Source: Candidatus Bathyarchaeia archaeon (GTDB lineage Archaea > Thermoproteota > Bathyarchaeia > Bathyarchaeales > Bathycorpusculaceae). Taken from it: DNA of 64,000 nucleotides. Positions within the stretch are counted from its first letter, which is position 1; every line of letters begins with the position of its first letter. The stretch covers positions 32,001 to 96,000 of the forward strand of contig JBEKSS010000010.1 in NCBI GenBank assembly GCA_049516875.1. The letters run 5' to 3'. This document shows, piece by piece, positions 15,527 to 49,969 of the stretch. The notes beneath the pieces are model-generated. The model was given only the letters and a program-made list of their open reading frames with translations, ran no database searches and was not told the DNA's origin. A program made the translations under genes and the position numbers.

Positions 15527-16077
15527 TTTATTACGAAAAGCGTTTCGCTTTCGTTCACAGGCGTCCCTTCAGCAACGTTTACCTCTTGGACGATTCCTGC
15601 CTTTGGTGCCGAGATTTCGTTCTCCATTTTCATGGCTTCAATCACGCATAAGACTTGACCAGCCTTAACTTGGTCACCCTTCTTCACTTTAACTTGAACA
15701 ATCTTGCCTGTCATAGGCGCGGTCACTGCACCTTCAACAGCGATCTTCCTATTCGTGCCAGTTTTCTTCATTGCCGCTTGTGATGTTGGTTCAAAACCTA
15801 TCAATGCCTGTCTCCTGCTGGCAATCTTCACTTCCACTTCAAACCCGGTGTCTTCAACCTTGACCGGAATCTTTTTTCCTTCGACTTTAGGCAGTTCGAC
15901 CTTGTAGGTTTTGCCATCTATTTCTATGGTAAATGCTTTCTCTGATACGATTCCATTTTCTTGAAGCTTGATTTCCCGAGGTTTGCCGTCTATCTTGGCT
16001 GCGTAAGAGTTCGGGGATGTTCTTGTCAGTTCGATTCTCCGTGGCTTGCCGTCTATGACGGCTTCGTAATCAGGCAT
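15523..16077 (-). CDS. Biotin carboxyl carrier protein (1.3S-like)
   Basis: EAMKMENEI biotinylation motif. Confidence 0.93.
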
Positions 16078-31951: not shown

Positions 31952-32449
31952 CTATCGCGGAAGCAGTTCAAGCAATGTCTGGACGATTTCCTTCTCAGAC
32001 GCTTGAACACTGGGGGTCAGACCCTCTCCAAAATCACTTTTTTCAGGTTCCACCAATAACAGGGCGATTTTTGCTTGCGTCGTCTCCGTAACATGCTCAC
32101 AGAATATCCGCAGTGGAAGCATGTGTGTCGAAAAAACAGGAGACATTGTTAATCGTTTAGGTTCAACAAGCTTGAAACTGCCAGGCTTCAAACCTAGAAG
32201 TGCAGCGTCTATCAGAAGGACATGCGTTGGACTGAAATCTATGATTTGTGGCATGAAATCTTCAGGAACCGTTTCGCATTCCATAAGGCAGACCTTTTCA
32301 GAAACCCTTCCCTGCAAATCTTGGACTACTCTGACTCCAACATAGTCGTCCATGCGAATGGGATTTCCAACACCAGCAAGAGCGACTCTTTCCGCCTTTG
32401 AAAACCATCTCTCAAGCTGTTTTTGTGCACTGGACTTTCTTGCAACCAC
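31952..32449 (-). CDS. hycI: Hydrogenase maturation protease (HycI-like)
   Basis: GVGNPIRMDDYVG, ETVPE, IDAA and STHMLPL. Confidence 0.9.
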   Translation of the reverse strand: MVARKSSAQKQLERWFSKAERVALAGVGNPIRMDDYVGVRVVQDLQGRVSEKVCLMECETVPEDFMPQIIDFSPTHVLLIDAALLGLKPGSFKLVEPKRLTMSPVFSTHMLPLRIFCEHVTETTQAKIALLLVEPEKSDFGEGLTPSVQASEKEIVQTLLELLPR

Positions 32450-32488
32450 TGGAAATCTCCATTAGAGTATTACAGAAAGAAATAGGGC

Positions 32489-33943
32489 TTATCTCTGAAC
32501 TTTTCTTAAAACTTTTCTGTCTGCATCGTAGATTTCTACAGTTAAAGGCATTTGTCCCACAGCGTAATGCGTGGCGCACCCGAAGCACGGGTCGTAAGCC
32601 CTGAAAGCCATTTCAACCATGTTAAGCAAGCCCTGATTCACTTTCCCGTCATGTATCAGACCTTTTGCCGCATCACGGATGGACATGCAGATCGCAGGAT
32701 AGTTGTTGGTTGTCGCCACAATCAGGTTAACATCCTTGATAAGCGCGTCCTTGTCCAGCACGTAGTGGTGATAAAGCGTGCCTCTTGCTGCCTCGACCAC
32801 TCCCACGCCCTCGCCTGGCTCGCCCGGCTTGTTCCGCACGTCCGTGCTGGTTATCTCTGGATCTCTGACAAGCTCAAGCGCTCGTTCAGTGGCGTAAAGC
32901 AGCTCTATCAGCCTTGCCCAGTGGAAAGCCAAAGTTCCATGCACTGGTTTTCCGCCCAGAGTCTTGTACATTACCTCATACTCTTCCTGTGCAAGCGGCG
33001 TTGCCATGCCGTCCGAAGCGTTGAGTCTTCCAAGCGGACCGACACGGTAGACTCCGCTGTCCGGGCCGTAGACTTGGCCTTTCCAGCCTACCTTCTTCAA
33101 GAACGGGAACTTTGAGTAGGTCCACTCTTCCACGTGCTCGCCGATATAGGTCAGGTAGTCTTTGGGTTCAAACTTCAGGAATTCGCCGCCGCTGGGATAG
33201 ACAACTCTGATTTTGCCGTCGTAAAAGTTGACCTTGTTGTGTTCATCAACCAGACCCATGTAGTAGGTGTTCATCGTGTACGCGTCGCTCTTGATCATGT
33301 CAACGTACTTCGGGTTTCCAAGAACAATGTCATGGAATATCTTCAGGGTGAGCTTTGCGAACTCCAAGGACGACGCTGCCATCTTCTCGATTTCCTGCCT
33401 GTTCTCTTCGCTCAACGGCTTCGAGATGCCGCCGGGCAACCCGCACACTGGATGCGTCGCTTTTCCGCCCAGAATCTCAGTTATCTTTTGTCCGTAGGCT
33501 CGGTGCTTAATGACTTCTTTGGCTACGTCCATTCCGACTTTTTCAATGACTCCTAGAATGTTCCTTTTCTCAGGCGGAGCGTCGGGCCCAACGATGAAGT
33601 CCGGTCCACCCAGATAGTAGAAGTGCAGTGTGTGGTCATAGATAATGTATCCAGCGTACATGAGTTCTCTGAGCTTCTTGGCGGCTGATGGAGGTTCAAC
33701 GTTGAACGCCGCGTCCAAGGCTTTCGTTGCCGCAAAATGGTGAGCGACTGGGCAGACTCCGCAGATTCTGGTCGTCAGAATCGGCATGAGTTCAGCCCTT
33801 CTGCCGACGCAGAACTTCTCGAACCCCCTGAGTTCAGGTATCTTGAGATAGGCGTTTTCAACTTCGCCCTCGTTGTTCAGGAATATCGAAACGTTTCCAT
33901 GGCCTTCCAGTCTTGTTATTGGATCTATCACTATTTCCTTCAT
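32489..33943 (-). CDS. mvhA: [NiFe] hydrogenase large subunit, group 3c
   Basis: ITRLEGHG, L1 RICGVC, L2 DPCFGCATH plus a cleavable C-terminal tail; hdr/mvh context. Confidence 0.93.
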
Positions 33944-34920
33944 TGTCCCATCACTTTCCTCCTGAGAATTGATGACGGTAAAGAGTACATGTAGAACGTT
34001 CCGAGAGGATCTTTGATTTGGTTCATCAGATTGTCAACATCCTCCTGAGTGTAGTGTTCTGTCTCTCCCTCTAACCCAAGTATTGAAGCTAACGCGCCTA
34101 TCATGGCTGCTCCTTGTTCCGGCGAGTTGGGACAGGGCCCACCGCATCCCGTGCAGGGCATGTCAACCGTGAGGCATTGAGCCCCGCATCCACTGCGAGT
34201 TGCTGGTCCCATGCATATTATCCCCTGTTCGAGCAAGCACTTCTCCGGTTCGGGGACCTTCTCATGGACTCGGTATATCTTTGAGATTCTCTTGTTCTCC
34301 TTCTTTCTTGGGCATTCATCGCAGACAGATTTTAACGGTGCGAGTACGGAACCTTTGGGGGGAAGTTCGTTCTTTGCTATGGCGTCAACGGCGTTTAGGA
34401 TGAGTTTGACTGGAGGTGGGCAACCTGGTAGGTAATAGTCAACTTCAACTGTCTGATCTAGGGTTTTGACGGTGTCATAGAACTCTGGGAGCTTCAGGAC
34501 GCCTTCTTTTGCTTCAAACCTGGTTTTGGGTTCGACTCTTTTTGGATTTGCGATTGACTTGCTTTCAAGGTAGACCTTGCTGAAAATCTCTTTCCGATCA
34601 TGGAGATTCGCTAGGCCAGGTATGCATCCTTCTTGGGCGCAAGAGCCGAATGCAACGAGCACCTTGGCCTTTTGTCTCAAGAGTTTGGCCATGTGTTCCT
34701 GCTCTTCGCTCCTGACTGAGCCATTAAAGAAGCATATGTCCATGTACTTGTCGGGCATGGCTTCAACGTCTTTGTATTTGACGTCCATAGCAACAGGCCA
34801 GAACACTATGTCCGCAATCTTTACCACGTCCAGTATTTTCTCGTTTATGTCCAACACTGCGATTTCGCATCCGCCACAGCTTGCAGCCCAGTAGAAACCC
34901 AGTTTCAATTTTTCAGCCAT
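33940..34920 (-). CDS. mvhG: [NiFe] hydrogenase small subunit
   Basis: SCGGC, GSCA, PGCPP and CMGPATRSGC...CTGCGG. Confidence 0.92.
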   Translation of the reverse strand: MAEKLKLGFYWAASCGGCEIAVLDINEKILDVVKIADIVFWPVAMDVKYKDVEAMPDKYMDICFFNGSVRSEEQEHMAKLLRQKAKVLVAFGSCAQEGCIPGLANLHDRKEIFSKVYLESKSIANPKRVEPKTRFEAKEGVLKLPEFYDTVKTLDQTVEVDYYLPGCPPPVKLILNAVDAIAKNELPPKGSVLAPLKSVCDECPRKKENKRISKIYRVHEKVPEPEKCLLEQGIICMGPATRSGCGAQCLTVDMPCTGCGGPCPNSPEQGAAMIGALASILGLEGETEHYTQEDVDNLMNQIKDPLGTFYMYSLPSSILRRKVMGQ

Positions 34921-35811
34921 CTATTTTCCACCTTCACACACTTGTCCCAATATTTTTGAACAGTCAACGCGAAGCTCATTGAAAGCCAGTTCACCAGGCG
35001 ACATCCCCATTGCCAAACCCAGCAGTTGGGGATAATGCAGAATCGGAATACCGTAAACCTCGTTGAACATCTTTTCTATACGCAGCTCGTTCGTGTCGTA
35101 CATGATGTGACAGAACGGGCAGATAGTTATCATCGCCTGTGCATCCACAGTTTTGATGTGGTTCAGCTTGTCCCTTGCAAGCTGCAGGGCGATCTTGTCG
35201 TTTACTCCAACGCTAGGAGCGCCGCAACATTCTGTCTCGTCCAAGTAATCCAAACATGTTGCTCCAGTTGTTTCGATCAGAGTTTTGAGTGTTTTAGGAT
35301 CTTCAGGATCGTCAAAACCGATGTATTCTTTAGGCCTCAAAATGTGGCAACCGTTGTGCTCAGCGACTTTCACGTTTGTAAGCGGCTTAACAATCGTTTC
35401 TTTTATCTTCTCCAACCCAACGTCTTCAACCAGGACCTGCAACAAGTGCTTGGCTGTAACTGTTCCCTTGAACTCAAGTCCAGCTTCCTTCAAATGCTTG
35501 TTTATCTCTTCACGCATTTGCTCGTCTTCTTTCAACATCTTGCTGACTTTCTTCAGAGTTCCAGCACAGCCTGGGCACAGGGCCACGATGTCTAATCCCT
35601 TCTGCTCTGCCATAGCGAGGTTTCTGGCTGCCAAGATAAGCATCGTTTCGTGGCTTACAGGATCTAAGGGGAGACCACAACAGTTGAATTCGGGCATTTC
35701 AACTATTTCCACGCCGAGTCTTTTGAGGATTTTCCGTGCTGAAATCTCGTACGCAGCCACACGGTATGGAATTGCGCATCCCAGAAACATGAGATATTTG
35801 CGTTCGGCCAC
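34921..35811 (-). CDS. hdrB: Heterodisulfide reductase subunit B
   Basis: FLGC, NCCG, CPGC, GCH, ECCG and CPFCH CCG motifs; GTG at 35811. Confidence 0.92.
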   Translation of the reverse strand: MAERKYLMFLGCAIPYRVAAYEISARKILKRLGVEIVEMPEFNCCGLPLDPVSHETMLILAARNLAMAEQKGLDIVALCPGCAGTLKKVSKMLKEDEQMREEINKHLKEAGLEFKGTVTAKHLLQVLVEDVGLEKIKETIVKPLTNVKVAEHNGCHILRPKEYIGFDDPEDPKTLKTLIETTGATCLDYLDETECCGAPSVGVNDKIALQLARDKLNHIKTVDAQAMITICPFCHIMYDTNELRIEKMFNEVYGIPILHYPQLLGLAMGMSPGELAFNELRVDCSKILGQVCEGGK

Positions 35812-35812
35812 T

Positions 35813-36337
35813 CTAGCCTCCCTTCTTTTCAACGCATTTGAGGAAACCTATTTCGCGCAGTGTTTTGCCTATGCTTTCGGGGTTGCCTTTCGGCAGTGGC
35901 GGCAGGCCTAGGGTTTCTCTTTTCTTTAATCTTAACTCTGGAATTCGGTAGGCGTATCCTGACTCGAGTATGCTTGATGCTTCCTCTTTGAACACTTGAG
36001 GCACGATGCCCTTCTCAGCTGCTAGATTTCTCAGAACGCGTATGACGCTGGCTACTTCGACATCTTGTGGACACCGGTCTGTACATGTGAAGCAAGCTGC
36101 ACAAAGCCACAGTGTGTCGCTGTTCAGCACTCTGTTTCTAAGTCCGAGCTGTGCCATGCGGATTATCTGTCTCGGCCTGTAAGTTTCGCTGAACCTTGCA
36201 ACCGGACAGTCTGATGTGCATGTTCCACACTGGAAGCAGCGCATCACTTTTTCTCCGCCGCGCATCTTTGAGATTTCGTACTTGAATTTGGGGTCGATTT
36301 CTGAAGCCTTTATCGGCTTTTCAGCTGTTTCTGCCAT
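35813..36337 (-). CDS. hdrC: Heterodisulfide reductase subunit C
   Basis: CFQCGTCTSDCP and WLCAACFTCTDRCP. Confidence 0.92.
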   Translation of the reverse strand: MAETAEKPIKASEIDPKFKYEISKMRGGEKVMRCFQCGTCTSDCPVARFSETYRPRQIIRMAQLGLRNRVLNSDTLWLCAACFTCTDRCPQDVEVASVIRVLRNLAAEKGIVPQVFKEEASSILESGYAYRIPELRLKKRETLGLPPLPKGNPESIGKTLREIGFLKCVEKKGG

Positions 36338-36774
36338 TAGGCTTCAGCTTCCATAGCTTTCACCGGGCTTGGACCAAGCTTCTTCAAGTCTTCCACCATG
36401 CTTCTGACCACGGCTGCCCATTTGTCTCCTTCACTTGCCGAGATCCATTCTAACCGTAAACGCTCAGGTTCAATTCCGAAGTCTTTCAAGACTCTCTTCA
36501 ACAGGTTTATTCTTCTCATGGCCTTGAAGTTCCCGCTGATGTAGTGACAGTCTGATGGTAAGTGGCAACCTGCGACGAGCACGCCGTCCGCGCCGTCTTT
36601 GAATGCTTCTAACACGAACGCGGGGTCTATTCTGCCGCTGCACATCACACGTATGATTCTGATGTTTGGAGGATACTGAATTCTGCTTACGCCTGCCAGG
36701 TCTGCGCCTGCGTAGGCGCACCAGTTGCATAGAAAACCGATTATTTTCGGTTCAAACCCGTTGTTCTTGTTCAT
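36337..36774 (-). CDS. mvhD: Hydrogenase/Hdr [2Fe-2S] delta subunit
   Basis: [31 protein letters not shown] and WISASEG; ATG 36774 overlaps the hdrA stop. Confidence 0.93.
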
Positions 36775-39700
36775 TATTCTGCCTCCACTAGAGCTGCTTT
36801 GACTTGAGCAAGTATTTCCTGGTTGGTGAAGTGTCCCATCGTGATGGCTTTGGTTGGACAGGCCGTACCGCATGCGCCGCAACCTTTGCACAGGGCTTCA
36901 ATCACGTGCGCAATTGGTTTTCCGTCCTTATCCTTCATTTCGAGTGCACCATATGGGCATAGATACTCACAGATTCTGCAGCCACTACATAAATCTTCGT
37001 CAACGTTTGCGATGATTCCTTCCATCTCAAGCGTATTCTTGGAGAGTATCGTTGTTGCCCTTGAGGCGGCTGCGCATGCTTGTGCGATGCTTTCTTCGAT
37101 GTACTTTGGCGAGTGAGCCATTCCGCACAGGAAAACGCCGTCCGTCGCGAAGTCCACTGGACGGAGTTTCATGTGTGCTTCGAGGAATGAGCCGTCCTTT
37201 GTCAGTGGTACCTTGAGCATTTCTGCTATGTGCTTGTTCTCAGGGTTTGGAATTGTGGCGGCGCTTAGGACCACGAGGTCGGGTTCAATCTCGACCTGCT
37301 GTTTCAGCACGGACTCCCAGAAAGTCATCTTGAGTTCGTTTCCTTCCTTGGTGAGCTCCGGCTTGCGTTCATCGTCATAATTTATGAACGTGACCCCTTT
37401 CATTGCTGCGTCCCGGTAGTAGTCTTCCTTGAACCCGTAGGATCTGATGTCCTTGAACAGCACGTAGACTTCGGTCTGCGGGCTTACCTGCTTGATTTTC
37501 AGCGCGTTCTTTATGGCTTGTCCACAGCATATTCTTGAGCAGTTGGGTCTTTCCTTTGTCCTCGCGCCGATGCATTGGACCATGACGACGTTTTTGGCGT
37601 TGAACTCTCCGTTGGCAAGGTCTTCTTCCAACTCATGCTGCGTCACGACCCTCGGGTCCTTGTCGTAGAAGTACTCTGTGGGTCTGTATTCCACCGCGCC
37701 GGTAGCAACTATTACTATGCCGTGCTCAACTTCTTTTTCACTGCCGCTCTGCTGGCGCATCTTTGACTTGTAGTTGCCCACGAAACCATAGATGTCGGTA
37801 ACTTCTGCTCCGGTGTAAACGTGTATCTTGTCGTTTTTCATGACCTCGCTGACGAGGGCGTTCAGTTTTTCTTTCGGGTCTTCTTTTTCTCCGAGCAGGT
37901 AGTAGATGGTGCGAAGATGACCGCCCAGTTCTTTCTCTTTTTCAACCAAGTGAACTTCGAACCCCTGTTTTGCGAGCTCCAGGGCTGCGGTCATGCCTGA
38001 GACTCCGCCTCCTATGACGAGTCCGACTTGGGTGACGTTTATCACTGGTTTCTTCAATGGTTTCAACAGGGCGGATTTGGCGACTATTGATCTAACGAGA
38101 TCTTTGGCTTTTTTCGTGGCCTCTTTCGGCTCGTGCATGTGCACCCAGCTGCACTGGTCTCGGATGTTTGTCATTTCGAACAGGTACGGGTTCAGTCCTG
38201 CTTCCTGGAGGGTTTCTTTGAACAAGGGTTCATGCGTCCTCGGCGTGCACGAAGCAACTATGACGCGGTTCAGCTTGTTCTGCTGGATTTTTTCACGGAT
38301 AAGCTTCTGTGTGTCCTGTGAGCAGGTGTAAACGTTTGCCTCCGCATAGACCACGTTTGGCAGGGTCTTCGCATACTCCACGACTTGTGGCACGTTTACG
38401 ACTCCGCCGATGTTGATTCCGCAGTGACAGACGAAGACGCCGATGCGAGGCTCTTCCTTGCTCACGTCTCTCTCAGGCGGATATTCTCTTGCACCGACTT
38501 GAGTTCCTCTTGCGTCTGCTATTATGCCCATGGCTCTTGCCGCTGCACCGCTCGCTTGGGCTACGCTTTCAGGTATGTCTTTCGGTGCTGAGAAGGCGCC
38601 GCAGACGAAGATGCCCGGTTTCGAAGTGTCCATTGGAGAAAAAGTCTGCGTTTCACAGAAATTGTACTTGTTAAGCTTGATTCCCAGGTTTTTGGCCAGT
38701 TCTTCAACGTCTTTCGGCGGCTTCATTCCGATTGAAAGAACGACCATGTCGAACTCTTCCGTCTTGGGCGTTTCGTCCTGTACGTAATGCACGAATAGAT
38801 TGCCCGTCAACGGATCTTCGGTCACTCCGGCGACGCGTGATCGTGTGAATCTTATGCCGTACTCTTCTTCGGCGCGGTTGCGATAGGCGTCGAATTCCTT
38901 TCCGTAGGAACGCATGTCCATGTAGAAGATTGATGCGTCCATCTGGATGGGTGTGTGCTCTTTTGCTATGACGGCTTCTTTCATGCCGTACATGCAGCAG
39001 GCTGCAGAGCAGTAGTTGTTTCCGAGCTGGTAGTCTCTTGAGCCGACGCATTGGATGAAGGCTACCCGTTTGGGTATTTCGCCGTCTGATGATCGCAGGA
39101 CAAGTCCACCGTAGGGGCCGGAAGCACTCAGGATGCGTTCGAATTCGATGCTTGTGACGACGTTTTGGAAGCGTCCGTAACCGTATTCGCTTTTGAGTCT
39201 TGCATCGAAGGGTTCGAATCCGGGAGCGAGGATTATTGAGCCGACTTTCAGGGTTGTTTCGCTCTCTTTCTGGTCGTACGCGATTGCTCTTGCTTTGCAG
39301 ATTTCGTAGCACGTTCCGCAGCCTATGCATTTTTCGCGGTCAATCTTGTACTTCAGCGGGACTGCCTGTGGATACTCTACGTAGACTGCGCCTCTGTTCG
39401 CGAGGCCTTCGTTAAACATGTCAACAGCTTCGATTGGACATTTCTGCGCGCAGATGCCGCAGCCGTTGCACTTTTCTTCAATTATGTAGCGGCTGTTTTT
39501 TCGAATCTTTACTTCGAAGTTTCCAGCTTCACCGTTCAGTCCTGTGATGTCCGTGTTTGTAAGAATCGTGATGTTCGGGTGTCTTCCGGTTGCAACAAGT
39601 TTGGGTGAGAGGATGCACATTGAACAATCGTTTGTTGGAAATGTCTTGTCGAGTTGAGCCATCACCCCGCCTATGCTTGGTCCCTTGTCAACTAGGTACA

Positions 39701-39794
39701 CTTTGAATCCGGAGTCGGCTAGGTCTAGGGATGCTTGTATGCCAGCGACCCCTCCGCCGACAACCATTACTGCTCCAACTTTCTGGTTTTCCAT
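36774..39794 (-). CDS. hdrA: Heterodisulfide reductase subunit A, long form (about 1006 aa, two FAD modules)
   Basis: [36 protein letters not shown], second [13 protein letters not shown] and C-terminal 2x[4Fe-4S]. Confidence 0.93.
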
Positions 39795-39795
39795 T

Positions 39796-40557
39796 CTACT
39801 CAACCTCCAACGCCTTGTAAAGGGGTGTTGTTCCTTCAATACTGTCTAGAGCTATCATATTTTTTCTGCGCATGTTCACGATCTGTTTGAGAACTGCTGC
39901 TGGCTTCATTTCGGTTACTTCTGCTAAGGCTTTAACTGAAAGCGGTTTGGTTTTTGTGAGAACGTGAATTTTGTATCTGATGAATTCATCTTCAACAACA
40001 TCATCCATCAACGTGTCGAACTCTTCGCGTGTGAGTTTGTCGCCGTAAACGTTCACACCTTCTGTGAGCTCTTTCTCTCTTCCCAGCAAGACTCTCAGGC
40101 GAAACTCGCTGGCAGCGTTCTTGGCAGCTAGGAGATTCACCATTGGCATAGATTCGCTGTCTGCATCTTTCAGCGGGGAAGCTCCCAGTTTTCCTATTTC
40201 CCTGGAGAACTCTTTCGCTGAGCGTGTAAAACTCGTTTCTTCTAAGGGCGAGTACCAGAGCAGGTTTAAGCGTTCAGATTCCAAGCCTGCCAGTGCCAAG
40301 AGCTTCTTCAGCATTTTGACGGCGCGTTCTGCTTGCAGGTTGCCTTCAACGAAGTGGCAGTCTGGAGGTTTGCAGCCTGCCAGCATCACGGCGTCGGCGC
40401 CTTTTTTGAACATTTCGAGAACTATCGTCGGGTCTATTTCTCCGATGCAGTTTACGCGTGTTACGTTAACGTTGGAGGGTACCGGGTTCTCGCTGTTGCA
40501 AAAAGCGAAATTGCACATCAAACAAACAATTCTGGGTTCTTTGTCTGTCATGTTCAT
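39796..40557 (-). CDS. Divergent MvhD-like [2Fe-2S] protein with C-terminal helical/winged-helix extension
   Basis: RVNCIGEIDP, GADAVMLAGCKPPDCHFVEGN and ERLNLLW; C-terminal LSVKALAEVTEMKPAAVLKQIVNMRRKNMI. Confidence 0.82.
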   Translation of the reverse strand: MNMTDKEPRIVCLMCNFAFCNSENPVPSNVNVTRVNCIGEIDPTIVLEMFKKGADAVMLAGCKPPDCHFVEGNLQAERAVKMLKKLLALAGLESERLNLLWYSPLEETSFTRSAKEFSREIGKLGASPLKDADSESMPMVNLLAAKNAASEFRLRVLLGREKELTEGVNVYGDKLTREEFDTLMDDVVEDEFIRYKIHVLTKTKPLSVKALAEVTEMKPAAVLKQIVNMRRKNMIALDSIEGTTPLYKALEVE

Positions 40558-42276
40558 CTACTCCTTGGCTGTTGCCATGGCGAAGCTTACTATGCGCTCG
40601 TTGGTCACTTTCTTCATCGTTATCGCCCTTGTTGGACATCTTGCTGCACAGATTCCACAGCCCTTGCACAGGTCTTCATCTATTCGTGCGATGTTGTTCT
40701 CGTCTTTTACAGCTGCTCCGAATGGGCAGACGACCGCGCACACGTTGCAGCCTATGCAGAGTGCTTCGTCGACAACTGCTTTGTCGCCCTCGCACAGGTC
40801 TGTGGTTCCGAGGCATTCTGCGCAAGGTCCGCAGCCTAGGCAGCGGTAAGCTTCAAACTTGGCGTCTCTCTCCAGCTTTTCCAGAAAGTCTTGCACTTCT
40901 TCAAAAGTGGCGTGAGATTTCTCTGGGAGAGGATTGTACCGGCGTTCTTTTTTCGTTATTTGCTTCCGGTTTTTGGCCCAGCTTGTTTCTTCGATGTTTT
41001 CTTCTCTTCCTTTGTGCATGTCTTGTCCGCTAAGGTAGAGGTGAATTGACGCGGCTGCTCGTTTTCCTTGTCCCACGGCTTCGATTATGCTTGCAGGTCC
41101 AGTGGCTATGTCGCCGCCTGCGAAGACGCCGGGAACTTTGGTCTCGAGTGTTAATGGATCCGTGGTTATCGTTGGAACCCTTGCTTTCTCATCCTGCAGG
41201 GTCTTCGGGATGCATGAGGTCTCTGCCAGTTGGCCCAGGGCAGGGATGACCATGTCCACCTCGTACTTATACTCAGAACCTGGGATTGGCACTGGGCGCC
41301 TTCTGCCGCTTTCGTCAGGTTCACCCAGCTTCATCCTCAAGCAGTCTATAGCTGTGACTTCGCCGTTTTGCCCGATAATCTGTTTTGGTGCGACCAGAAT
41401 CTCTATCTTGACACCGTCTTTTTCGGCTTCTGCCACTTCGCTGGGTAAGGCAGGCATTTCCTCGCGGGAACGTCTGTACAGAAGGGTGACTTCTTTTGCA
41501 CCCTGTCTTTTGGCTGTTCTGGCAGCGTCTATCGCGCTGTTCCCGCCTCCGACGACGGCTACTCTTTGTCCGACTTCCACTTGTTTTCCAAGGGCTATGT
41601 CCCTCAGGAAGTCAACGGCGTTTACCACGCCTTTCAGGTCTTCACCTGGAACGTTGAGCATCATGCCTTTCTGGGTGCCGATGGCCACAAAAATAGCCTT
41701 GTAGCCTTCTTGGCGTAGGCTCTCAATTGTGATGTCTTTTCCGAATTCTACGCCTGTTTTGATTTGCACGCCTAGATCTCTGATGTAGTTTGCTTCGTTT
41801 TCAACAACGAATTTTTCAAGGCGGAAATCGGGTATGCAGTAGCGCATCATTCCTCCGGGCTCGGACATGCGTTCAAAAACTGTCACGGGGTAACCGAGTT
41901 TTGCGAGTTCGTATGCTGCCGTTAGGCCTGCTGGACCTGCTCCGATGATGGCGACTTGCTCGGTGTGCCTTTTGGGTATGGGTTTGGGTTTGACCTTTCT
42001 TTGTTGGCGTTCAATGTCGGCGACGAATTTCTTTAATGCGCGTATGGCTACAGCTTGGTCGACATCGGTTCTTGCACACTCGTCCTCACACGGGCTGAAG
42101 CATACTCTTCCACAGATTGCTGGGAAGGGCATGTCGTTGCGTATGATGTCAACCGCTTCTTTGTACTTTCCTCTTTGAATCAGAGAGACGTATGCTTGAA
42201 CGTTGACGTGTGCTGGGCATGCAGAGCGGCATGGCGGTAGCTTTCTTTTTACGCTTGTCACAGTCTCAGTTGCCAT
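40558..42276 (-). CDS. GltD/NfnB-like FAD/NAD(P)H oxidoreductase with C-terminal 2x[4Fe-4S] (HdrL-like module)
   Basis: PPCRSACP, ICGRVC..PCE..C, GAGPAG, GGGNSAID, YRRSREEMPA, FAGGD, RCLGC and two ferredoxin motifs. Confidence 0.88.
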   Translation of the reverse strand: MATETVTSVKRKLPPCRSACPAHVNVQAYVSLIQRGKYKEAVDIIRNDMPFPAICGRVCFSPCEDECARTDVDQAVAIRALKKFVADIERQQRKVKPKPIPKRHTEQVAIIGAGPAGLTAAYELAKLGYPVTVFERMSEPGGMMRYCIPDFRLEKFVVENEANYIRDLGVQIKTGVEFGKDITIESLRQEGYKAIFVAIGTQKGMMLNVPGEDLKGVVNAVDFLRDIALGKQVEVGQRVAVVGGGNSAIDAARTAKRQGAKEVTLLYRRSREEMPALPSEVAEAEKDGVKIEILVAPKQIIGQNGEVTAIDCLRMKLGEPDESGRRRPVPIPGSEYKYEVDMVIPALGQLAETSCIPKTLQDEKARVPTITTDPLTLETKVPGVFAGGDIATGPASIIEAVGQGKRAAASIHLYLSGQDMHKGREENIEETSWAKNRKQITKKERRYNPLPEKSHATFEEVQDFLEKLERDAKFEAYRCLGCGPCAECLGTTDLCEGDKAVVDEALCIGCNVCAVVCPFGAAVKDENNIARIDEDLCKGCGICAARCPTRAITMKKVTNERIVSFAMATAKE

Positions 42277-42404
42277 TCTTGAACCCCGCTTTAATCATCA
42301 AGTATTGTTTCCAAGGCGAACTTATTAAAGCACCTAAGCCACGCTTGGCGCATGCGTGGCATATGTCAAACGTGCTTATTTGATACGTCATCTTAAAATC
42401 GAGA

Positions 42405-42995
42405 TTACTCATGTGATCTTTCCTCCAGCTTATCGACCCATTTGTTGTATTCACGCGCACCCATCAGGCTGTCAAGCTCTTGCTTCAAGGTCAAGGAATT
42501 GTTCGGTTTGATTTCCACGATCCATCCTTGCCCGTACGGGTCTTCGTTGACCATGGTGGGCTTTTCTTTGAGTTTTTCGTTGATTTTGACTATTTGGCCG
42601 CTGATCGGTGAATAGAGGTCAAACAGCAGCATCCATGTTTCAGCGACTCCGAATGGATCCATTTTGTTGAATTCTTTTCCAACCGGTTCTGTTCTGACTT
42701 GAGCCAGACCTCTGAGTCGTCTTTGTGCATAGTCAGATATGCCGACGCGCACGTTTCCTTCCGTTGTCGTTTGAGCCCACGTGTGTTTCGGCGTATACAA
42801 CAACTGATCAGGCGTGGAAGGCATTTCTTGGCTCTTGCCTGAAGAGAATCCTTCCGTGCGCGTGAGCTCTTCCAGACGCAGGCGAATGGCTTCTGACACA
42901 AATTCTGAAATGCTTCGGTAACGACCTGTTTTAATGATTTTTTCGATTTCTTTTATGAGTTCCTGTCTGATGCTGATTGTTTTCCACTCAGACAT
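42405..42995 (-). CDS. Ribbon-helix-helix (CopG/Arc/MetJ) domain fused to a glycine-cleavage H-protein-like domain lacking the lipoyl Lys
   Basis: N-terminal WKTISIRQELIKEIEKII..GRYRSISEFVSEAIR; C-terminal LLYTPKHTW, VGISDYAQ, DLYSPISGQIVKIN and VNEDPYGQGWI. Confidence 0.85.
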   Translation of the reverse strand: MSEWKTISIRQELIKEIEKIIKTGRYRSISEFVSEAIRLRLEELTRTEGFSSGKSQEMPSTPDQLLYTPKHTWAQTTTEGNVRVGISDYAQRRLRGLAQVRTEPVGKEFNKMDPFGVAETWMLLFDLYSPISGQIVKINEKLKEKPTMVNEDPYGQGWIVEIKPNNSLTLKQELDSLMGAREYNKWVDKLEERSHE

Positions 42996-43221
42996 TCATC
43001 AGCCCTCCCTAAGCTTTGAGTTAGGTGTGCATTAAACTTGAGTTATTTAGGGTTTTCCTTGACTGCTTAGGAAACAGTCCATAGTCTAGACACAAATCAA
43101 AATGGGCAAACTGGCGACTTTCAACACGGAGTGCGGTTGAAAACATGGCTTAAAAGTCGATGTGGATGCTTCGAAAAGCATGGCTAACTGAGTCTTCAGA
43201 ACAGTTGTCAACGGTAATAGG

Positions 43222-46023
43222 TTAGCTTGGCATGGGTTCTGTTTTTTTCTGTCCTTTTGGTTCCAGTTGCGTTTCTGTCTGGTTCTTAGCCTGTGTTTCC
43301 TCGATCATCTTCGGTTCTGTGCACTTTGCTTCTTCTTCTCTGATGTTCAGTGTTCCTTTCACGGTTCCGTCGTCCATATATTTGACGGTGAAACCCATTT
43401 TCTTCATGAGGCCGATTGCCCTGTAATTGTCGGCAAGCATTATGGCGTAGATTGTTTCGAGTTTCATGTCTGCGCAGATTTCCAGCACGTAATCTACCAT
43501 TTTGGTGCCCAGTCCTAGGCCTTGCCATGGGTCGGCGACGATGAAGGCGATTTCACCTGTTTTTCCGTCGGGTTCTATGCTCACCCGCGATACGCCGAGG
43601 ATTCTTTTGCGTCCTTCCTCAGTTAGTTCTGCGACTATGGCGATTTCTCGGTCGTAGTCTATGTTGCAGTAGCGAACTCTGGTTTCGTGCGGTGTGTCTT
43701 TGAGTATCTGGAAGAATCTGTAGCGTATTGACTCTTCTGAGAAGTTCTGGAACATTTCCAACCACAATGGCTCGTCTTCAGGCTTTATCGGTCTCAGTAT
43801 GACTGTTCGGCCGTCTCGGAGTTTCCACATGGTTTCGTATTTTGTCGGATATGGTGATATGACAAGATGCTGGTGAAGTTCAAACTTGGTGAACACCTTT
43901 TTTGCGTCAATCACCATGCGTGCATCTAAGGCGAAGGCCTCTTTTTCATTTATGAAAAGTGGGTTGATGTCAACTTCTTTGAGCTGCGGAAAATCAACGA
44001 GCATTTGGCTGAAGCGAACCAGTATCTCTTCAAGGAGTTTGATGTTGGCTGGAGGCACGTTTCGGTAGCCTTTAAGAAGCTGATAAACCTTGGTTTCTTC
44101 CATCATTCTTCTGACGAGAGTTTGGTTTAACGGTGGAATTCCTATGGCGAAGTCTTTGAAAAGCTCTACTCCGACTCCTCCCATCCCAAACAGCATGACC
44201 GGACCGAAGAGTGAGTCAGCTTTGGCTCCGATGATTAGTTCGTAGCCCTGCCCCTTTATCATGGGCTGGACAGTCACACCCAGAATCTCAGCGTCCGGGT
44301 TGTATTCCTTTGCTTTCTGCGTTATCCGGTTGAATGCCTCTCGAACCTCAGCTTCGTTTGCTATGTTCAACATGATGCCACTTGCTTCGGTCTTGTGTGC
44401 TATTTGGGGAGACAAAATCTTCAGAACGACCGGATAACCCATCTGCGAAGCCAGCTGAACTGCTTCGTTTTCCGTTTGTGCAGCTTTCGTTTTTACAACG
44501 GGAAAGTTGTAGTATTCCAGGAATGTTTTGGCTTCAGCTTCGGTGAGTATTTCACGGTTTTCAGATGCGACGCTTCTCATTATGGTTAGGAGTGGTCGTT
44601 TTGGCGGTACCACGTCTACCGGAAGTTCTTCCGGCGTTTCATAGAGCAGTTCGAGGTTGCGTTTGTACTGGTACATGTATTGATATGTCTTTATTGCCTG
44701 TTCAGGCGTTGAGTACGTTGGAATGTTGTTCTCGATGAATATCCGGTTAGCTTCTTCCACTGCTCCATAGCCCATGAACGAAGTCAGTATCGTCTTGTTG
44801 TGATAAGTTCGGCTTCTTATCAGTTCAGCGAGGCTCTTGGCAACTTCCACGGGTTCTGCTACAGCTTGGGGAGTGTATATTATTACTATGCCGTCGACGT
44901 TATCGTCGTTGAGGCAGGCTTCAACTACTACCCTGTACCTGTCGGCCTTGGCGTCCCCGAGGATGTCAATAGGGTTTCCTCTGCTCCAGAAATGGGGCAG
45001 AATGCTGTTAAGCGTATCCATTGTTTTTTCACTGAGCTTTGCAAGCGTTCCTCCCTGTGCGATTAAGGCGTCGGTCGCCATGACTCCTGGGCCGCCAGCG
45101 TTGGTGATTATGGCAAGGTTGGGACCTCTTGGTATGGGCTGCATGCCCAGGACTGCCGCGCTGTTGAAAAGGTCGGCGATTTCTTCTACTCTAACCATGC
45201 CTGCTCTTTTGAATGCCTTGTCGTAAATCATGTCCTCGCCGGTGAGCGAGCCAGTGTGAGAGGCAGCGGCTTTTGCGCTTTCGCTGAATTTTCCAGCCTT
45301 TACGACGATTATCGGTTTTGTTCTTGCGAAGTGTCTTGCAGCGCTCATGAATTTTCTGGCGTCAGTTATTCCTTCAATATACATGAGTATGCTTTTTGTT
45401 TTCGGATCAGTGCCGAAGTAGTCGATGAGGTCGCCGAAGTCCACGTCGATCATTGAGCCTAGGGATACGAAGTTGCTGAACCCTATGTTTTCGTGCATTG
45501 CCCAGTCGAGGATTGCTGAGCCTAAAGCGCCACTTTGAGAAATGAATGCTATGTTGCCTGGCTTCGGCATCTTGCTTATGAAAGTCGCGTTTAAGCGCAT
45601 GATTGGGCGAATTACCCCCAGGCAGTTTGGTCCAACGATTCGCATGCTGTATTTCTTTTTGATTTCAGTTATCTTTTCCTCTAGCGCTCTGCCTTCAGGC
45701 CCGATTTCTTTGAAGCCTGCGGAGATTATGATTATGCCGTTTATGCTGGCTTTTCCGCACTGTTCAAGCACGTCGGGCACTGTTCTCGCGGGTGTGGCAA
45801 TCACGGCAAGGTCTATGGGTTCGGGGATTTGTTCCACACTCTGATATGCCGTTAAGCCGAAGACCTCAGTCTTCTTGAGGTTGACCGGGAAAACATGGCC
45901 TGCGAAATCTGATTCTGTGAAATTCTTGATCAACGCGCAGCCGACTGAACCCTCTTCATCGCTTGCTCCTATGACGGCGACGCTTTTCGGGTTGAAAATC
46001 TTGTCAAGATTCAAGGTAACCAA
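43222..46023 (-). CDS. Acyl-CoA synthetase (NDP-forming) alpha/beta fused to a C-terminal GNAT (Pat/PatZ-like)
   Basis: VAVIGAS, VGPNCLG, SQSGALG, ASHTGSL, TNAGGPGV, NPIDILGDA, ATP-grasp region, DINP and GNAT motif WQGLGLGT. Confidence 0.9.
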   Translation of the reverse strand: MVTLNLDKIFNPKSVAVIGASDEEGSVGCALIKNFTESDFAGHVFPVNLKKTEVFGLTAYQSVEQIPEPIDLAVIATPARTVPDVLEQCGKASINGIIIISAGFKEIGPEGRALEEKITEIKKKYSMRIVGPNCLGVIRPIMRLNATFISKMPKPGNIAFISQSGALGSAILDWAMHENIGFSNFVSLGSMIDVDFGDLIDYFGTDPKTKSILMYIEGITDARKFMSAARHFARTKPIIVVKAGKFSESAKAAASHTGSLTGEDMIYDKAFKRAGMVRVEEIADLFNSAAVLGMQPIPRGPNLAIITNAGGPGVMATDALIAQGGTLAKLSEKTMDTLNSILPHFWSRGNPIDILGDAKADRYRVVVEACLNDDNVDGIVIIYTPQAVAEPVEVAKSLAELIRSRTYHNKTILTSFMGYGAVEEANRIFIENNIPTYSTPEQAIKTYQYMYQYKRNLELLYETPEELPVDVVPPKRPLLTIMRSVASENREILTEAEAKTFLEYYNFPVVKTKAAQTENEAVQLASQMGYPVVLKILSPQIAHKTEASGIMLNIANEAEVREAFNRITQKAKEYNPDAEILGVTVQPMIKGQGYELIIGAKADSLFGPVMLFGMGGVGVELFKDFAIGIPPLNQTLVRRMMEETKVYQLLKGYRNVPPANIKLLEEILVRFSQMLVDFPQLKEVDINPLFINEKEAFALDARMVIDAKKVFTKFELHQHLVISPYPTKYETMWKLRDGRTVILRPIKPEDEPLWLEMFQNFSEESIRYRFFQILKDTPHETRVRYCNIDYDREIAIVAELTEEGRKRILGVSRVSIEPDGKTGEIAFIVADPWQGLGLGTKMVDYVLEICADMKLETIYAIMLADNYRAIGLMKKMGFTVKYMDDGTVKGTLNIREEEAKCTEPKMIEETQAKNQTETQLEPKGQKKTEPMPS

Positions 46024-46738: not shown

Positions 46739-47539
46739 TTAAATGTATTTCAGTATCATTTGAACGCCTACGATGACTATGACTAGGCCGAAGATTCGAC
46801 GAAGGTTCTTACCTGAAGTCTTCTTGGAAAGGTAGGCTCCAACCTGAGCGCCGAGGACGGTTCCTAACGCTAGCAGCAGTGCGTATTCGAAGTTTGTTTG
46901 TTTTGCGAAGTAGTGTTGTATTGCTTCGGAGGTTGAGGTAAAAGTCATTGTAAACATGGAAGTTGCAGTGGCAAAATGTATCGGCATGCCTACGACAAGA
47001 GTTAAAATTGGCACTATTAGCACGCCACCTCCAATTCCCAACAGCCCTGAAGCAATTCCGCCTAGAAAGCTCAAGATTGCGCAAAGTAGCATCTTCCGTA
47101 AGGAACTAAACGAGGCACTATCAGATTTTGTAGCGGGCTTGCCAGCTCCAGAGGTGGACGAATGTTTCAGTCTGATGGAGTTTGGGTCAATAGACATCGG
47201 CAGAGCAACAAAGATAATCACAAAGAATCCGAAGAAGGCGCCTAACAGTTTTGCAGAGATCACCGTGGTCAAGTATACTCCTAGGATCCCTCCTGGTGCT
47301 GTTGCTACGGCAAGCAGCGCGCCAGTTCTGTAAGATATTCGTCTTTGTTTTGAATAGTTTAAAGTGGAAGCTAAGGCTGTGAAGACTATTACCGTGAGAC
47401 TAGTTCCTGCGGCATTTGCAGGTGAAAAGGCGTAGAATAGAGTTAGTAGAGGAACTATGAAAACGCCTCCTCCGATTCCGGTCAAGGCTGCGACTGTTCC
47501 TATCAAGAACCCCAGGAACGGCAGCAGTATTTCCCACAT
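46739..47539 (-). CDS. TauE/SafE family sulfite exporter
   Basis: Duplicated GIGGG...VP...A(T/G)TS membrane repeats. Confidence 0.88.
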   Translation of the reverse strand: MWEILLPFLGFLIGTVAALTGIGGGVFIVPLLTLFYAFSPANAAGTSLTVIVFTALASTLNYSKQRRISYRTGALLAVATAPGGILGVYLTTVISAKLLGAFFGFFVIIFVALPMSIDPNSIRLKHSSTSGAGKPATKSDSASFSSLRKMLLCAILSFLGGIASGLLGIGGGVLIVPILTLVVGMPIHFATATSMFTMTFTSTSEAIQHYFAKQTNFEYALLLALGTVLGAQVGAYLSKKTSGKNLRRIFGLVIVIVGVQMILKYI

Positions 47540-48200: not shown

Positions 48201-48371
48201 TCAGCCCCTTAAGAAGCTACACATATATTAGCGTCGAAATACTGTTATAAGCCTTTCTCTTCTCGATTATAAGCCGTCATGGTCGTGTCGCTTATATTTC
48301 AGAAGCCACTCATATATACTACCCTGTACTCTATTATGACACTGTTGCCGCACCTGAAAGGGGAAAAGACT

Positions 48372-48935
48372 TTGACAGGTAAGTTGGATGATATGGACAA
48401 GAAGATTATGTCTTTGCTATCTCAGGATCCAGATGTTTCTCAAGGTGAACTTGCGAAACAGTTGAAGATTTCACAACCGGCTGTGAGTGCCAGAATACGC
48501 AAGCTCGAGGAAAAAGGAGCGTTAGCTTACATGGTAGGCACTGACGTTAAGAAGGCTCAGCTCTTCCTCGCCAACCTTGACGTTGCAACAAATCACGTTG
48601 AACAATTTTTGAAGTCTCTTGATGGGTGTCCTTTATACCTTAACAGCTTTTTGACATCTGGAAAAAACAACCTGACTGTGTTGCTGGTAGGCGAAAACAT
48701 CAGATCCATAATGTCCTGTGTAGATTCACACTTGAGGCAGAATCCTCTAGTAAAGGACACGGAACTCGACTTGATAATAACGCCTGTTCGGCCTTTCATA
48801 ATACCGATAAGATCCAGTGTGGAAAAGAAGAAGACAACGCCCTGTAACGCAGATTGTGGCAGTTGCACGTTGTACGCAAGTGATAGATGTCTAGGCTGTC
48901 CTGCCACCGTTTATTATAAGGGAGAATTGCTTTAA
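48372..48935 (+). CDS. Lrp/AsnC family regulator with C-terminal Cys cluster
   Basis: HTH LDDMDKKIMSLL..SQGELAKQLKISQPAVSARIRKLEEKG; tail CNADCGSC..RCLGCP; likely TTG start at 48372. Confidence 0.85.
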   Translation: MTGKLDDMDKKIMSLLSQDPDVSQGELAKQLKISQPAVSARIRKLEEKGALAYMVGTDVKKAQLFLANLDVATNHVEQFLKSLDGCPLYLNSFLTSGKNNLTVLLVGENIRSIMSCVDSHLRQNPLVKDTELDLIITPVRPFIIPIRSSVEKKKTTPCNADCGSCTLYASDRCLGCPATVYYKGELL

Positions 48936-49059: not shown

Positions 49060-49296
49060 TTGACAGTTGCATACGTGTTGGCAAAAGTCGAAGCAGGACT
49101 AGATCAGGAAGTCCTCATGGAAGTCAAGAAAATAGCCGGAGTCAAGCAAGCGACTCCAACTTACGGTGTGTATGACTTGCATGTTGAAGTTTCGTTTGAC
49201 AAGATGGAAGATCTTGACAAGTTCATTTTTGAGGGCATCCGAAGGATCCGCGGGATAAAGGAAACTGCAACATTGATAGCTTTCAAAGGGATATAG
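49060..49296 (+). CDS. Stand-alone Lrp/AsnC ligand-binding (RAM) domain protein
   Basis: AYVLAKVEAG, YGVYDL and IRRIRGIKETATLI. Confidence 0.85.
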   Translation: MTVAYVLAKVEAGLDQEVLMEVKKIAGVKQATPTYGVYDLHVEVSFDKMEDLDKFIFEGIRRIRGIKETATLIAFKGI

Positions 49297-49735: not shown

Positions 49736-49969
49736 CTATAGCTCGCGTTCAATCATTGTCGCTGTTGTCCTAACATTTCCAAGTTTTCTAATATGGGACA
49801 CAATCTGGTTAAGCTCATCAATCGTGTTCGCGGTCACCTTTGCTATTATGTCGTAATCCCCAAGAACATAGAAGGCTTCGTCAAAGCCTTGAACCTTCTT
49901 TAGAGCTTTTAAGACGCCAGTTTCACAACCCAGATTCACGTTCATCATGATAAACGCCTTGAACTTCAC
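49736..49969 (-). CDS. Stand-alone Lrp/AsnC ligand-binding domain protein
   Basis: AFIMMNV, GDYDII and IRKLGNVRTTATMI; GGAGG SD. Confidence 0.85.
   Translation of the reverse strand: MKFKAFIMMNVNLGCETGVLKALKKVQGFDEAFYVLGDYDIIAKVTANTIDELNQIVSHIRKLGNVRTTATMIEREL

Follow-up and report, generated by a model that had tools for sequence, protein, structure and literature searches.

A ribbon-helix-helix fusion to a lysine-less H-protein domain: a candidate local regulator of hydrogenase/heterodisulfide-reductase operons in Bathyarchaeia

Why should a gene whose product is labelled 'glycine cleavage system protein GcvH', as such proteins are in both JGI and NCBI annotation, stand at the head of a hydrogenase/heterodisulfide-reductase operon, and what could an H-protein that has lost its lipoyl lysine be doing there? 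The question is raised by a 64,000-nucleotide stretch of contig JBEKSS010000010.1 from a Candidatus Bathyarchaeia archaeon (assembly GCA_049516875.1; hereafter the window), in which the open reading frame at 42405-42995 joins an N-terminal ribbon-helix-helix (RHH) domain to a GcvH-like domain. The fusion architecture is conserved among relatives, its gene is linked to hdr/mvh genes, and the promoter of the adjoining operon carries a repeat array that is conserved and unique in the genome. Together these observations indicate that the public GcvH label is wrong and that the fusion is probably a local regulator of the adjoining operon, of a kind not described before.

The open reading frame and the motifs quoted for it in a preliminary description of this DNA (LLYTPKHTW, VGISDYAQ, DLYSPISGQIVKIN, VNEDPYGQGWI and AETWMLLFD) are all present, and a hidden Markov model scan proposed there as a check recovers both domains from Pfam: residues 65-188 match GCV_H (107 bits, E 7.8e-31), and residues 6-43 match RHH_1, whose cut-off of 20.5 bits is passed with a score of 23.3 (E 6e-5). 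The AlphaFold monomer model, built with 19 aligned sequences (mean predicted local distance difference test score, pLDDT, 86.5), displays two N-terminal helices (residues 9-22 and 29-47) followed by a disordered linker (49-62) and a confidently predicted, β-rich C-terminal domain. Superposed on solved H-proteins with Foldseek, this domain gives template-modelling (TM) scores of 0.84-0.95 and root-mean-square deviations of 1.1-2.0 Å at 31-37% identity, and the lipoyl lysine of the solved structures aligns with Met122 ('vestksvsdly' with 'aetwmllfdly'). The core motifs of GcvH (HxW, GxxDYAQ, DLYxPxSG, NxDPY and GW) are retained; the fusion passes NF002270, a looser GcvH subfamily model (121.9 against 117 bits), and misses the GcvH equivalog TIGR00527 (103.2 against 115.85 bits).

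Since the RHH assignment is marginal for the family on Pfam alone, a profile built from the N-terminal 50 residues of 17 members of the family was compared with one built from 17 RHH_1 domains that score above the Pfam cut-off in related Bathyarchaeia genomes. hhalign matched the two over residues 6-43 with a probability of 94.7% (E 6e-8), as against 0.2% for a reversed control and 0.1-18.3% for five column-shuffled controls. Searches of the PDB with the N-terminus, as a single sequence or a profile, returned weak matches (E 0.03-0.6), mostly to RHH proteins of the ParD, NikR, HicB and CopG families; NCBIfam likewise gave weak matches to CdrS, ParD (23 bits against a cut-off of 46.2) and NikR (14-15 bits against cut-offs of 83-119), and a precomputed PF01402 match is recorded for three of the best 120 homologues. 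At the level of homology these comparisons establish the RHH domain, and the initial placing of it in residues 1-45 is upheld. Residues 1-8, the site of the predicted ribbon strand, are unstructured in the monomer model, and a homodimer prediction with two copies had a median score of 0.35, between its controls (0.00-0.16) and the mark of 0.42, a value that speaks for binding as little as against it.

The loss of the lysine is a feature of the family. The lipoyl lysine is present in 105 of 105 canonical GcvH representatives. In the type of fusion to which the window protein belongs (type B, defined below; 78 sequences from species-level genomes, 76 of them distinct), T120 and W121 are invariant (100%), M122 is found in 75 of the 76 (99%) and F125 in 99%, and position 123 is Phe in 96% and Leu in the window protein; among 15 close homologues W121 occurs in all and M122 in 14, with Val in the remaining one. 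This conservation of Met rules out that codon 122 carries a sequencing error or an isolated mutation, no RHH-bearing relative examined has the lysine, and the hairpin with the lysine-to-methionine change pointed out at the start is, as far as sequence can tell, kept by selection.

A search of 1.84 billion protein representatives returned 7532 GcvH-like sequences at E ≤ 1e-3, of which 15 reach E ≤ 1e-30. The ten RHH-bearing clusters (at 50% identity) that were aligned all lack the lysine, and their hairpins read ETWM, LTRF, ETVARWP (ETVARWPLV), ETTSN, ETPGWW, ETPAW, ETWL, ESWW and ETFAPRCPF. When the best 150 of the representatives were classified together with the window protein and the GcvH of its own genome (152 rows), 106 had the lysine and no extension, 8 the lysine and an N-terminal extension, 20 an extension and no lysine, and 18 neither; an RHH domain, sought in the 8 lysine-bearing extended proteins and 2 further extended ones, was found in 0 of 10. 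A tree of 133 H-domains, from which 19 rows with domain lengths outside 105-150 were dropped, places all 15 lysine-less extended rows and 8 lysine-less short rows in one clade without any lysine-bearing member, with weak support (59 in the Shimodaira-Hasegawa-like approximate likelihood ratio test), and puts four further lysine-less rows elsewhere. This topology is compatible with a single origin of the lysine-less fusion. A search of the ESM Atlas found nothing beyond the family's own clusters and plain GcvH, and full-text literature searches, judged mainly on listings and abstracts, turned up neither a description of an RHH-GcvH fusion nor any regulator of these Bathyarchaeia hdr/mvh operons, in line with the earlier statement that no protein of such architecture has been characterised.

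Relative to canonical GcvH, further positions are conserved specifically in the family, namely T77-P-E-G-N81, R83, E161, W186 and K189, along with a two-residue insertion near position 170. Position 96 is Gly where 68% of canonical sequences have Asp (D96G), and positions 134 and 137 are Lys where 44% and 62%, respectively, have Glu (E134K, E137K); the acidic-to-basic changes lie on the strand just after the hairpin. The corresponding face of H-proteins is acidic and contacts their partner enzymes. Because the charges beside the hairpin have changed from acidic to basic or neutral, docking on the enzymes that recognise the lipoyl H-protein is disfavoured, and E134K, E137K and D96G speak against that part of the preliminary description, in so far as the general picture of an acidic contact face holds here. 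Furthermore, the protein contains 0 Cys and 2 His (positions 71 and 195), so that it cannot itself be a thiol/disulfide switch, and the idea that it senses redox state through its own thiols is counted out. The same genome encodes a canonical GcvH (contig 3; 136 residues, with the hairpin ESVKA), a GcvT (contig 1) and a GcvP (contig 5), all of them away from the fusion, which argues that the fusion is an extra, diverted paralogue; two BPL/LplA-family genes are also present. At L001:1465-3233 the canonical gcvH overlaps by 25 nt a gene for a 460-residue pyridine-nucleotide-disulfide oxidoreductase of the CoA-disulfide-reductase/NADH-oxidase type, and a third GCV_H match in the window (15523-16077) is a biotin carrier protein.

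In a class-wide sample of 201 Bathyarchaeia genomes the full-length fusion was found in 13, the window's own included, and all 13 belong to the same order as the window, from which 51 genomes were sampled. Among the matches listed for the 150 genomes of other orders none has an intact RHH part; a few alignments extend back to residues 25-48, all of them reading through stop codons. In one further genome, G062 (L047:14589-15166), residues 1-56 with the RHH and residues 61-193 with the H-like domain match in different frames, through either a frameshift or a genuine split. For the study of gene neighbourhoods we used the best 80 of 183 relatives, taking one genome per species, and all but two of these loci are titled Bathyarchaeia or Bathyarchaeota. 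One locus (L115) is titled 'Nanoarchaeia', and a distant short-linker fusion cluster (P0131; 180 residues, 51 members) carries the unconfirmed label 'Candidatus Baldrarchaeota'; these labels reflect either a wider range or mis-binning.

Two types of the fusion occur side by side as a tandem pair in 13 of the 80 loci (L116-L127 and L097; for example L117:7370-8564). Type A, the upstream copy, has the hairpin E-T/S-W-W-F-T and a linker motif, LAKERVSEYLERD, that is missing from the window's protein, whereas type B, the downstream copy, has the hairpin ETWMFxFD. In P0121 (417 residues, two members) A and B are naturally joined in one chain. The tandem pairs and this double chain suggest, on sequence grounds, that the working unit of the fusion may be a pair. 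The structure model of P0121, for which MAFFT placed all single-copy relatives on the second half only, has a mean pLDDT of 61.6, a predicted TM score of 0.37 and pLDDT below 50 in both RHH regions, values too low for it to inform on RHH pairing or H-domain contacts.

The position of the gene points to its likely target. As first described, the fusion gene heads a co-oriented, tightly packed run, which continues from 42276 to 31952 and spans about 11.0 kb with the fusion gene included. By tblastn, a gltD-like gene, the first of this run, lies at most 400 bp downstream of the fusion in 71 of the 80 loci and 686 bp downstream in one more; where downstream sequence extends for 7.9 kb or more (46 loci), 37 have the complete set of gltD-like, mvhD, hdrA, hdrC and hdrB genes. 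In the 201-genome sample a full-length orthologue of the gltD-like gene (at least 64% identity) occurs in 9 genomes, and in 8 of these the fusion adjoins it, the exception being G093. Among the remaining loci four have no recognised downstream gene, three have a hypothetical gene only, at about 1.1-1.3 kb, and one has a convergent Hox cluster; in the Hox-linked genus discussed below, L040 and L041 have hydrogenase matches at the same distance as the Hox cluster of L038. The proposed linkage to hdr/mvh thus stands in 71 of the 80 loci, but it is not strictly to Hdr and is better described as linkage to cytoplasmic [NiFe]-hydrogenase clusters in general. In the window the gltD-like gene and the double hdrA gene are each followed by an mvhD-like gene of their own, and the hdrA-mvhD unit is duplicated in some relatives (L101, L109 and L116).

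The second pointer is the promoter of this operon. Its TATA box can be aligned with a conserved cTTAATATAT in 62 of 72 upstream regions, with a median distance of 48.5 nt to the ATG of the gltD-like gene; the other 10 are all tandem-pair loci with short spacers. Upstream of the TATA box the consensus is tttTanGttAtntTTntGttAAnntTnatTtAGaTGnc, in which GTTA-type repeats recur at an 11-bp phase and TTAGRTG abuts the TATA box, and in the window array and TATA box together read ATGCCACGCATGCGCCAAGCGTGGCTTAGGTGC-TTTAATAAG (42321-42362). The 12-mer at -21 from the TATA box is palindromic at this offset alone, with on average 3.42 of 6 symmetric pairs and at least 5 pairs in 15 of 62 loci, as compared to means of 2.4 or less and at most 3 such loci at the 33 other offsets; the 12-mer of the window has 5 of 6. 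A position weight matrix trained on 55 distinct sites, with the window and its two nearest relatives excluded, scores the window site at 26.7 bits, and the next best of approximately 4.9 million positions (2.43 Mb, both strands) reaches 12.4. Conservation across clades together with uniqueness in the genome is what a dedicated local operator would be expected to show, and the array is a candidate for one. In a longer inverted repeat, GCCACGC-N9-GCGTGGC, the window and L049 differ by what looks like a compensatory change, judged from three sequences only.

In light of these connections we favour on balance, with rather modest conviction, the reading that the fusion is a dedicated RHH regulator of the adjacent operon, whose dead H-domain serves as an effector or oligomerisation module. 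Two RHH domains would pair and read DNA. The C-terminal domain would be a GcvH paralogue that lost the lipoyl lysine and whose hairpin became a conserved hydrophobic T-W-M-F/L-x-F surface, acting in effector binding and/or higher-order oligomerisation much as the C-terminal domain of NikR does. The most likely target would be the promoter of the gltD-like/mvhD/hdrA/hdrCB/mvhGA operon; since the array of repeats and near-palindrome lies right against the TATA box, occupation of the array would be expected to compete with TBP/TFB and to repress the operon. What the sequences show is the architecture and its conservation, the gene linkage and the conserved, unique array; we infer from there the binding of DNA, the choice of this protein over another factor as the binder of the array, the sign of the regulation and any signal to which it might respond.

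Several observations weigh against this reading. Across the family the Pfam models seldom recognise the N-terminus, RHH_1 reaching E ≤ 0.01 in 2 of 29 members and RHH_6 likewise in 2 of 29, and DNA binding by this domain is predicted from homology and not from direct evidence. Column composition accounts for the agreement between symmetric positions of the 12-bp palindrome (168 of 306 cells observed, 165.8 expected; 782 of 2000 shuffles reached the observed count), and the idea of co-varying positions was dropped; a symmetric consensus without covariation is more readily expected of a protein site than of a nucleic-acid hairpin. Common descent can also account for part of the conservation of an orthologous intergenic block. 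The fusion's own promoter and that of the operon have only TATA-like words in common, and a shared operator was rejected on that ground. One genus has TauE, a hypothetical gene and HoxEFUYH downstream of the fusion (L038, by Pfam) and lacks the promoter array, and at the tandem-pair loci L123 and L124 there are no hdr genes within 8 kb. Finally, the array could have another binder, such as the AbrB(MazE)-PhoU regulator whose gene stands divergently beside the fusion, about 100-600 bp upstream, in 69 of the 80 loci (for example L038:15832-16914). The window, L049 and L050 have a co-oriented Pat-like gene, with acyl-CoA synthetase and GNAT parts, upstream in place of this neighbour; L049 and L050 are the window's nearest relatives (91% and 87% identity) and the only loci to share its upstream arrangement, and the window's genome has AbrB-PhoU paralogues elsewhere only, 28-29% identical. 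Where the AbrB-PhoU gene is present, it and the fusion usually lie between two separate Hdr/Mvh clusters.

The alternatives differ mainly in what they ask of the H-like domain, which may be an oligomerisation module only. The best placed of them, which we still regard as unlikely, retains the regulator but lets this domain sense nothing: the hairpin would form the interface of a dimer of dimers and thereby allow cooperative binding to phased repeats. The bulky, hydrophobic and strictly conserved W-M-F/L-x-F of the hairpin, the 11-bp phase of the candidate operator repeats, the tandem paralogues with their single-chain double, and the lack of metal or thiol ligand residues in a protein with 0 Cys and 2 His would all fit this reading; the family-specific positions conserved off the hairpin (T77-P-E-G-N81, R83, K134, K137, E161 and W186) exceed what an interface alone would need.

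That the protein is no transcription factor at all, and instead serves the Hdr/Mvh (or Hox) complex as accessory or adaptor subunit or as pseudo-substrate, appears improbable. Here the H-like domain would dock as LbpA does on sHdr, with the N-terminus merely a dimerisation motif, and the tight linkage to Hdr/hydrogenase clusters would be accounted for. LbpA proteins, which are GcvH-like, do act as true partners of Hdr-like complexes (PMC6067878). However, the homology of the N-terminus to DNA-binding RHH domains argues otherwise, as does the transcriptional layout in relatives, where the fusion has a TATA box of its own in most, a T-rich tract follows its stop codon and the operon promoter is separate. 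The protein also has neither Lys nor Cys with which to carry a substrate, and the copies at L123, L124 and L045 have no hdr gene near them.

It is quite improbable, in our estimate, that the lysine-less domain acts as a pseudo-substrate or ligand sensor, reporting the state of the Hdr/Mvh complex or binding its physiological disulfide or thiol. If it did, the fusion would be the founding member of a group of archaeal redox regulators built on the lipoyl-carrier fold, and the ligand would reveal what HdrBC reduces in non-methanogenic archaea. Least probable of these is the reading, put forward in the preliminary description, in which the former lipoyl-arm cleft of a regulator binds free lipoate, lipoamide or the disulfide/thiol substrate of HdrB, coupling operon expression to that pool. 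The fully retained core of the H-fold, a target operon that encodes a disulfide reductase and a TauE-family transporter gene that recurs nearby would suit it; to our knowledge the substrate of that reductase in non-methanogens is not known. The hairpin, however, varies widely in length and sequence among distant subfamilies (ETVARWPLV, ETPGWW, ETTSN, LTRF), a poor fit with one conserved small ligand. Nickel sensing in the manner of NikR is rejected for want of ligand residues, and a ParD-type antitoxin for want of an adjacent toxin gene, the neighbours being the Pat-like and gltD-like genes.

The fusion gene's own upstream region is conserved in the window's two nearest relatives only, and the block at 43016-43063 (Table 1) likely includes its promoter; those two relatives do not keep the word GCTTAGG that precedes the gene in the window. 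Directly upstream, at 43222-46023 (minus strand), lies the gene for the Pat-like protein of 933 residues, in which an ADP-forming acyl-CoA synthetase-like region is followed by a C-terminal GNAT domain, the architecture of Pat-type protein acetyltransferases. A TauE/SafE-family transporter gene lies about 3.7 kb upstream of the fusion (46739-47539, minus strand); elsewhere such a gene is found directly downstream of the fusion in the Hox-linked genus (L038:14061-15041) and between the fusion and the gltD-like gene in G020 (L043, about 1700-2800). Within a few kilobases of the locus are also an AsnC-type helix-turn-helix protein with a Cys-rich C-terminus (48279-48935, plus strand) and stand-alone Lrp/AsnC ligand-binding-domain proteins (49060-49296, plus strand; 49736-49969, minus strand).

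Table 1. Features of the fusion locus and the adjoining operon, in window coordinates
Feature	Position	Strand	Basis or detail
RHH/lysine-less GcvH-like fusion coding sequence, type B	42405..42995	-	196 aa; ATG start
Shine-Dalgarno sequence GGGAGGG of the fusion gene	43003..43009	-	
RHH domain, residues 4-47	42855..42986	-	Pfam RHH_1, hhalign, AlphaFold helices, weak PDB matches (ParD/NikR)
RHH parts			Strand KTISIR; helix 9-22; turn G-x-Y-x-S-x-S-E; helix 29-47
Flexible linker, residues 48-62	42810..42854	-	pLDDT <50 at residues 49-62; poor conservation
H-protein (GCV_H) fold, residues 65-188	42432..42803	-	Pfam and Foldseek
Remodelled lipoylation hairpin E119-T-W-M-L-L-F-D126	42618..42641	-	Met122 codon 42630-42632, in place of the lipoyl Lys
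Conserved block, likely the fusion gene's own promoter	43016..43063	-	3-sequence alignment; function predicted
Candidate TATA box CTAAATAAC in this block	43042-43050	-	
Candidate TATA box GTTTAATG in this block	43030-43037	-	
Direct repeats TAACTCAA, 22 bp apart	43038-43045, 43016-43023	-	
Candidate operator array abutting the TATA box	42330..42362	-	Footprint, palindrome, position weight matrix
Array part: direct repeat ATGCCAC / GCGCCAAG			11-bp phase
Array part: near-palindrome GCCAAGCGTGGC	42338-42349		
Array part: CTTAGGTG	42331-42338		
Operon TATA box TTTAATAAG	42321..42329	-	45 nt before the gltD-like ATG
gltD/NfnB-like flavoprotein gene	40558..42276	-	First gene of the presumed target operon; C-terminal 2x[4Fe-4S]
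Remainder of the operon	31952..40557	-	
mvhD	39796-40557	-	
Double hdrA	36774-39839	-	1021 aa; two flavin modules
Second mvhD	36337-36891	-	
hdrC	35813-36337	-	
hdrB	34921-35832	-	
mvhG	33940-34920	-	
mvhA	32489-33943	-	
hycI protease gene	31952-32449	-	

Bathyarchaeia are abundant and uncultured, and we know of nothing reported on the control of their hydrogenase/heterodisulfide-reductase machinery. The fusion supplies a conserved candidate regulator right at such an operon, and a defined, unique candidate operator there makes for an experimentally tractable entry point. It also presents the fold of a lipoyl carrier reused as the C-terminal module of a predicted DNA-binding protein, a use of which we found no description. 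Naming such proteins GcvH in public annotation leads to glycine-cleavage capacity being over-counted in metabolic reconstructions.

Overall, what the preliminary description saw holds up, and its interpretation is borne out in part. The architecture is a new pairing of domains in a design already known, that of an RHH regulator with a C-terminal module. The closest parallel in layout is NikR, a nickel-responsive repressor that often controls hydrogenase-related genes, which likewise joins an N-terminal RHH, among the best of the weak PDB and NCBIfam matches to the fusion's N-terminus, to a C-terminal domain for oligomerisation and effector response; in NikR that domain is an ACT-like metal-binding one with a His/Cys nickel site, whereas in the fusion it has the H-protein fold and no such site. 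The small RHH repressors of the CopG, ParD and omega kind share a homologous N-terminal domain, and their operators consist of phased direct and inverted short repeats that the candidate operator here resembles. They are usually 45-90 residues long and have no large C-terminal domain, unlike the fusion, and ParD is paired with a toxin gene of which none adjoins it.

On the side of the C-terminal domain, the fusion has the same fold as GcvH (PF01597, TIGR00527), clear sequence homology to it and its core motifs, but differs in the replacement of the lipoyl lysine by Met and of the neighbouring S/V/A/S by T/W/F(L)/F, in the reversed charges at 134 and 137 and the change of D96 to Gly, in the added N-terminal RHH and in a gene that stands apart from gcvT and gcvP. 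GcvH-L of Streptococcus pyogenes (PDB 5a35), a structural match to the H-domain at rank 22 (E 7e-6, 16% identity), is also a diverged paralogue diverted from glycine cleavage; it functions as a modified carrier protein and, unlike the fusion, has no DNA-binding domain. LbpA is comparable as a GcvH-like protein tied genetically to an Hdr-type complex. It keeps the lysine, as the preliminary description had stated: the residue is strictly conserved in all 95 proteins analysed, and most of them have two conserved Cys (PMC6067878). In contrast, the fusion lacks both the Lys at this position and any Cys, carries an RHH domain, and belongs with Mvh/HdrABC-type clusters that include a [NiFe] hydrogenase.

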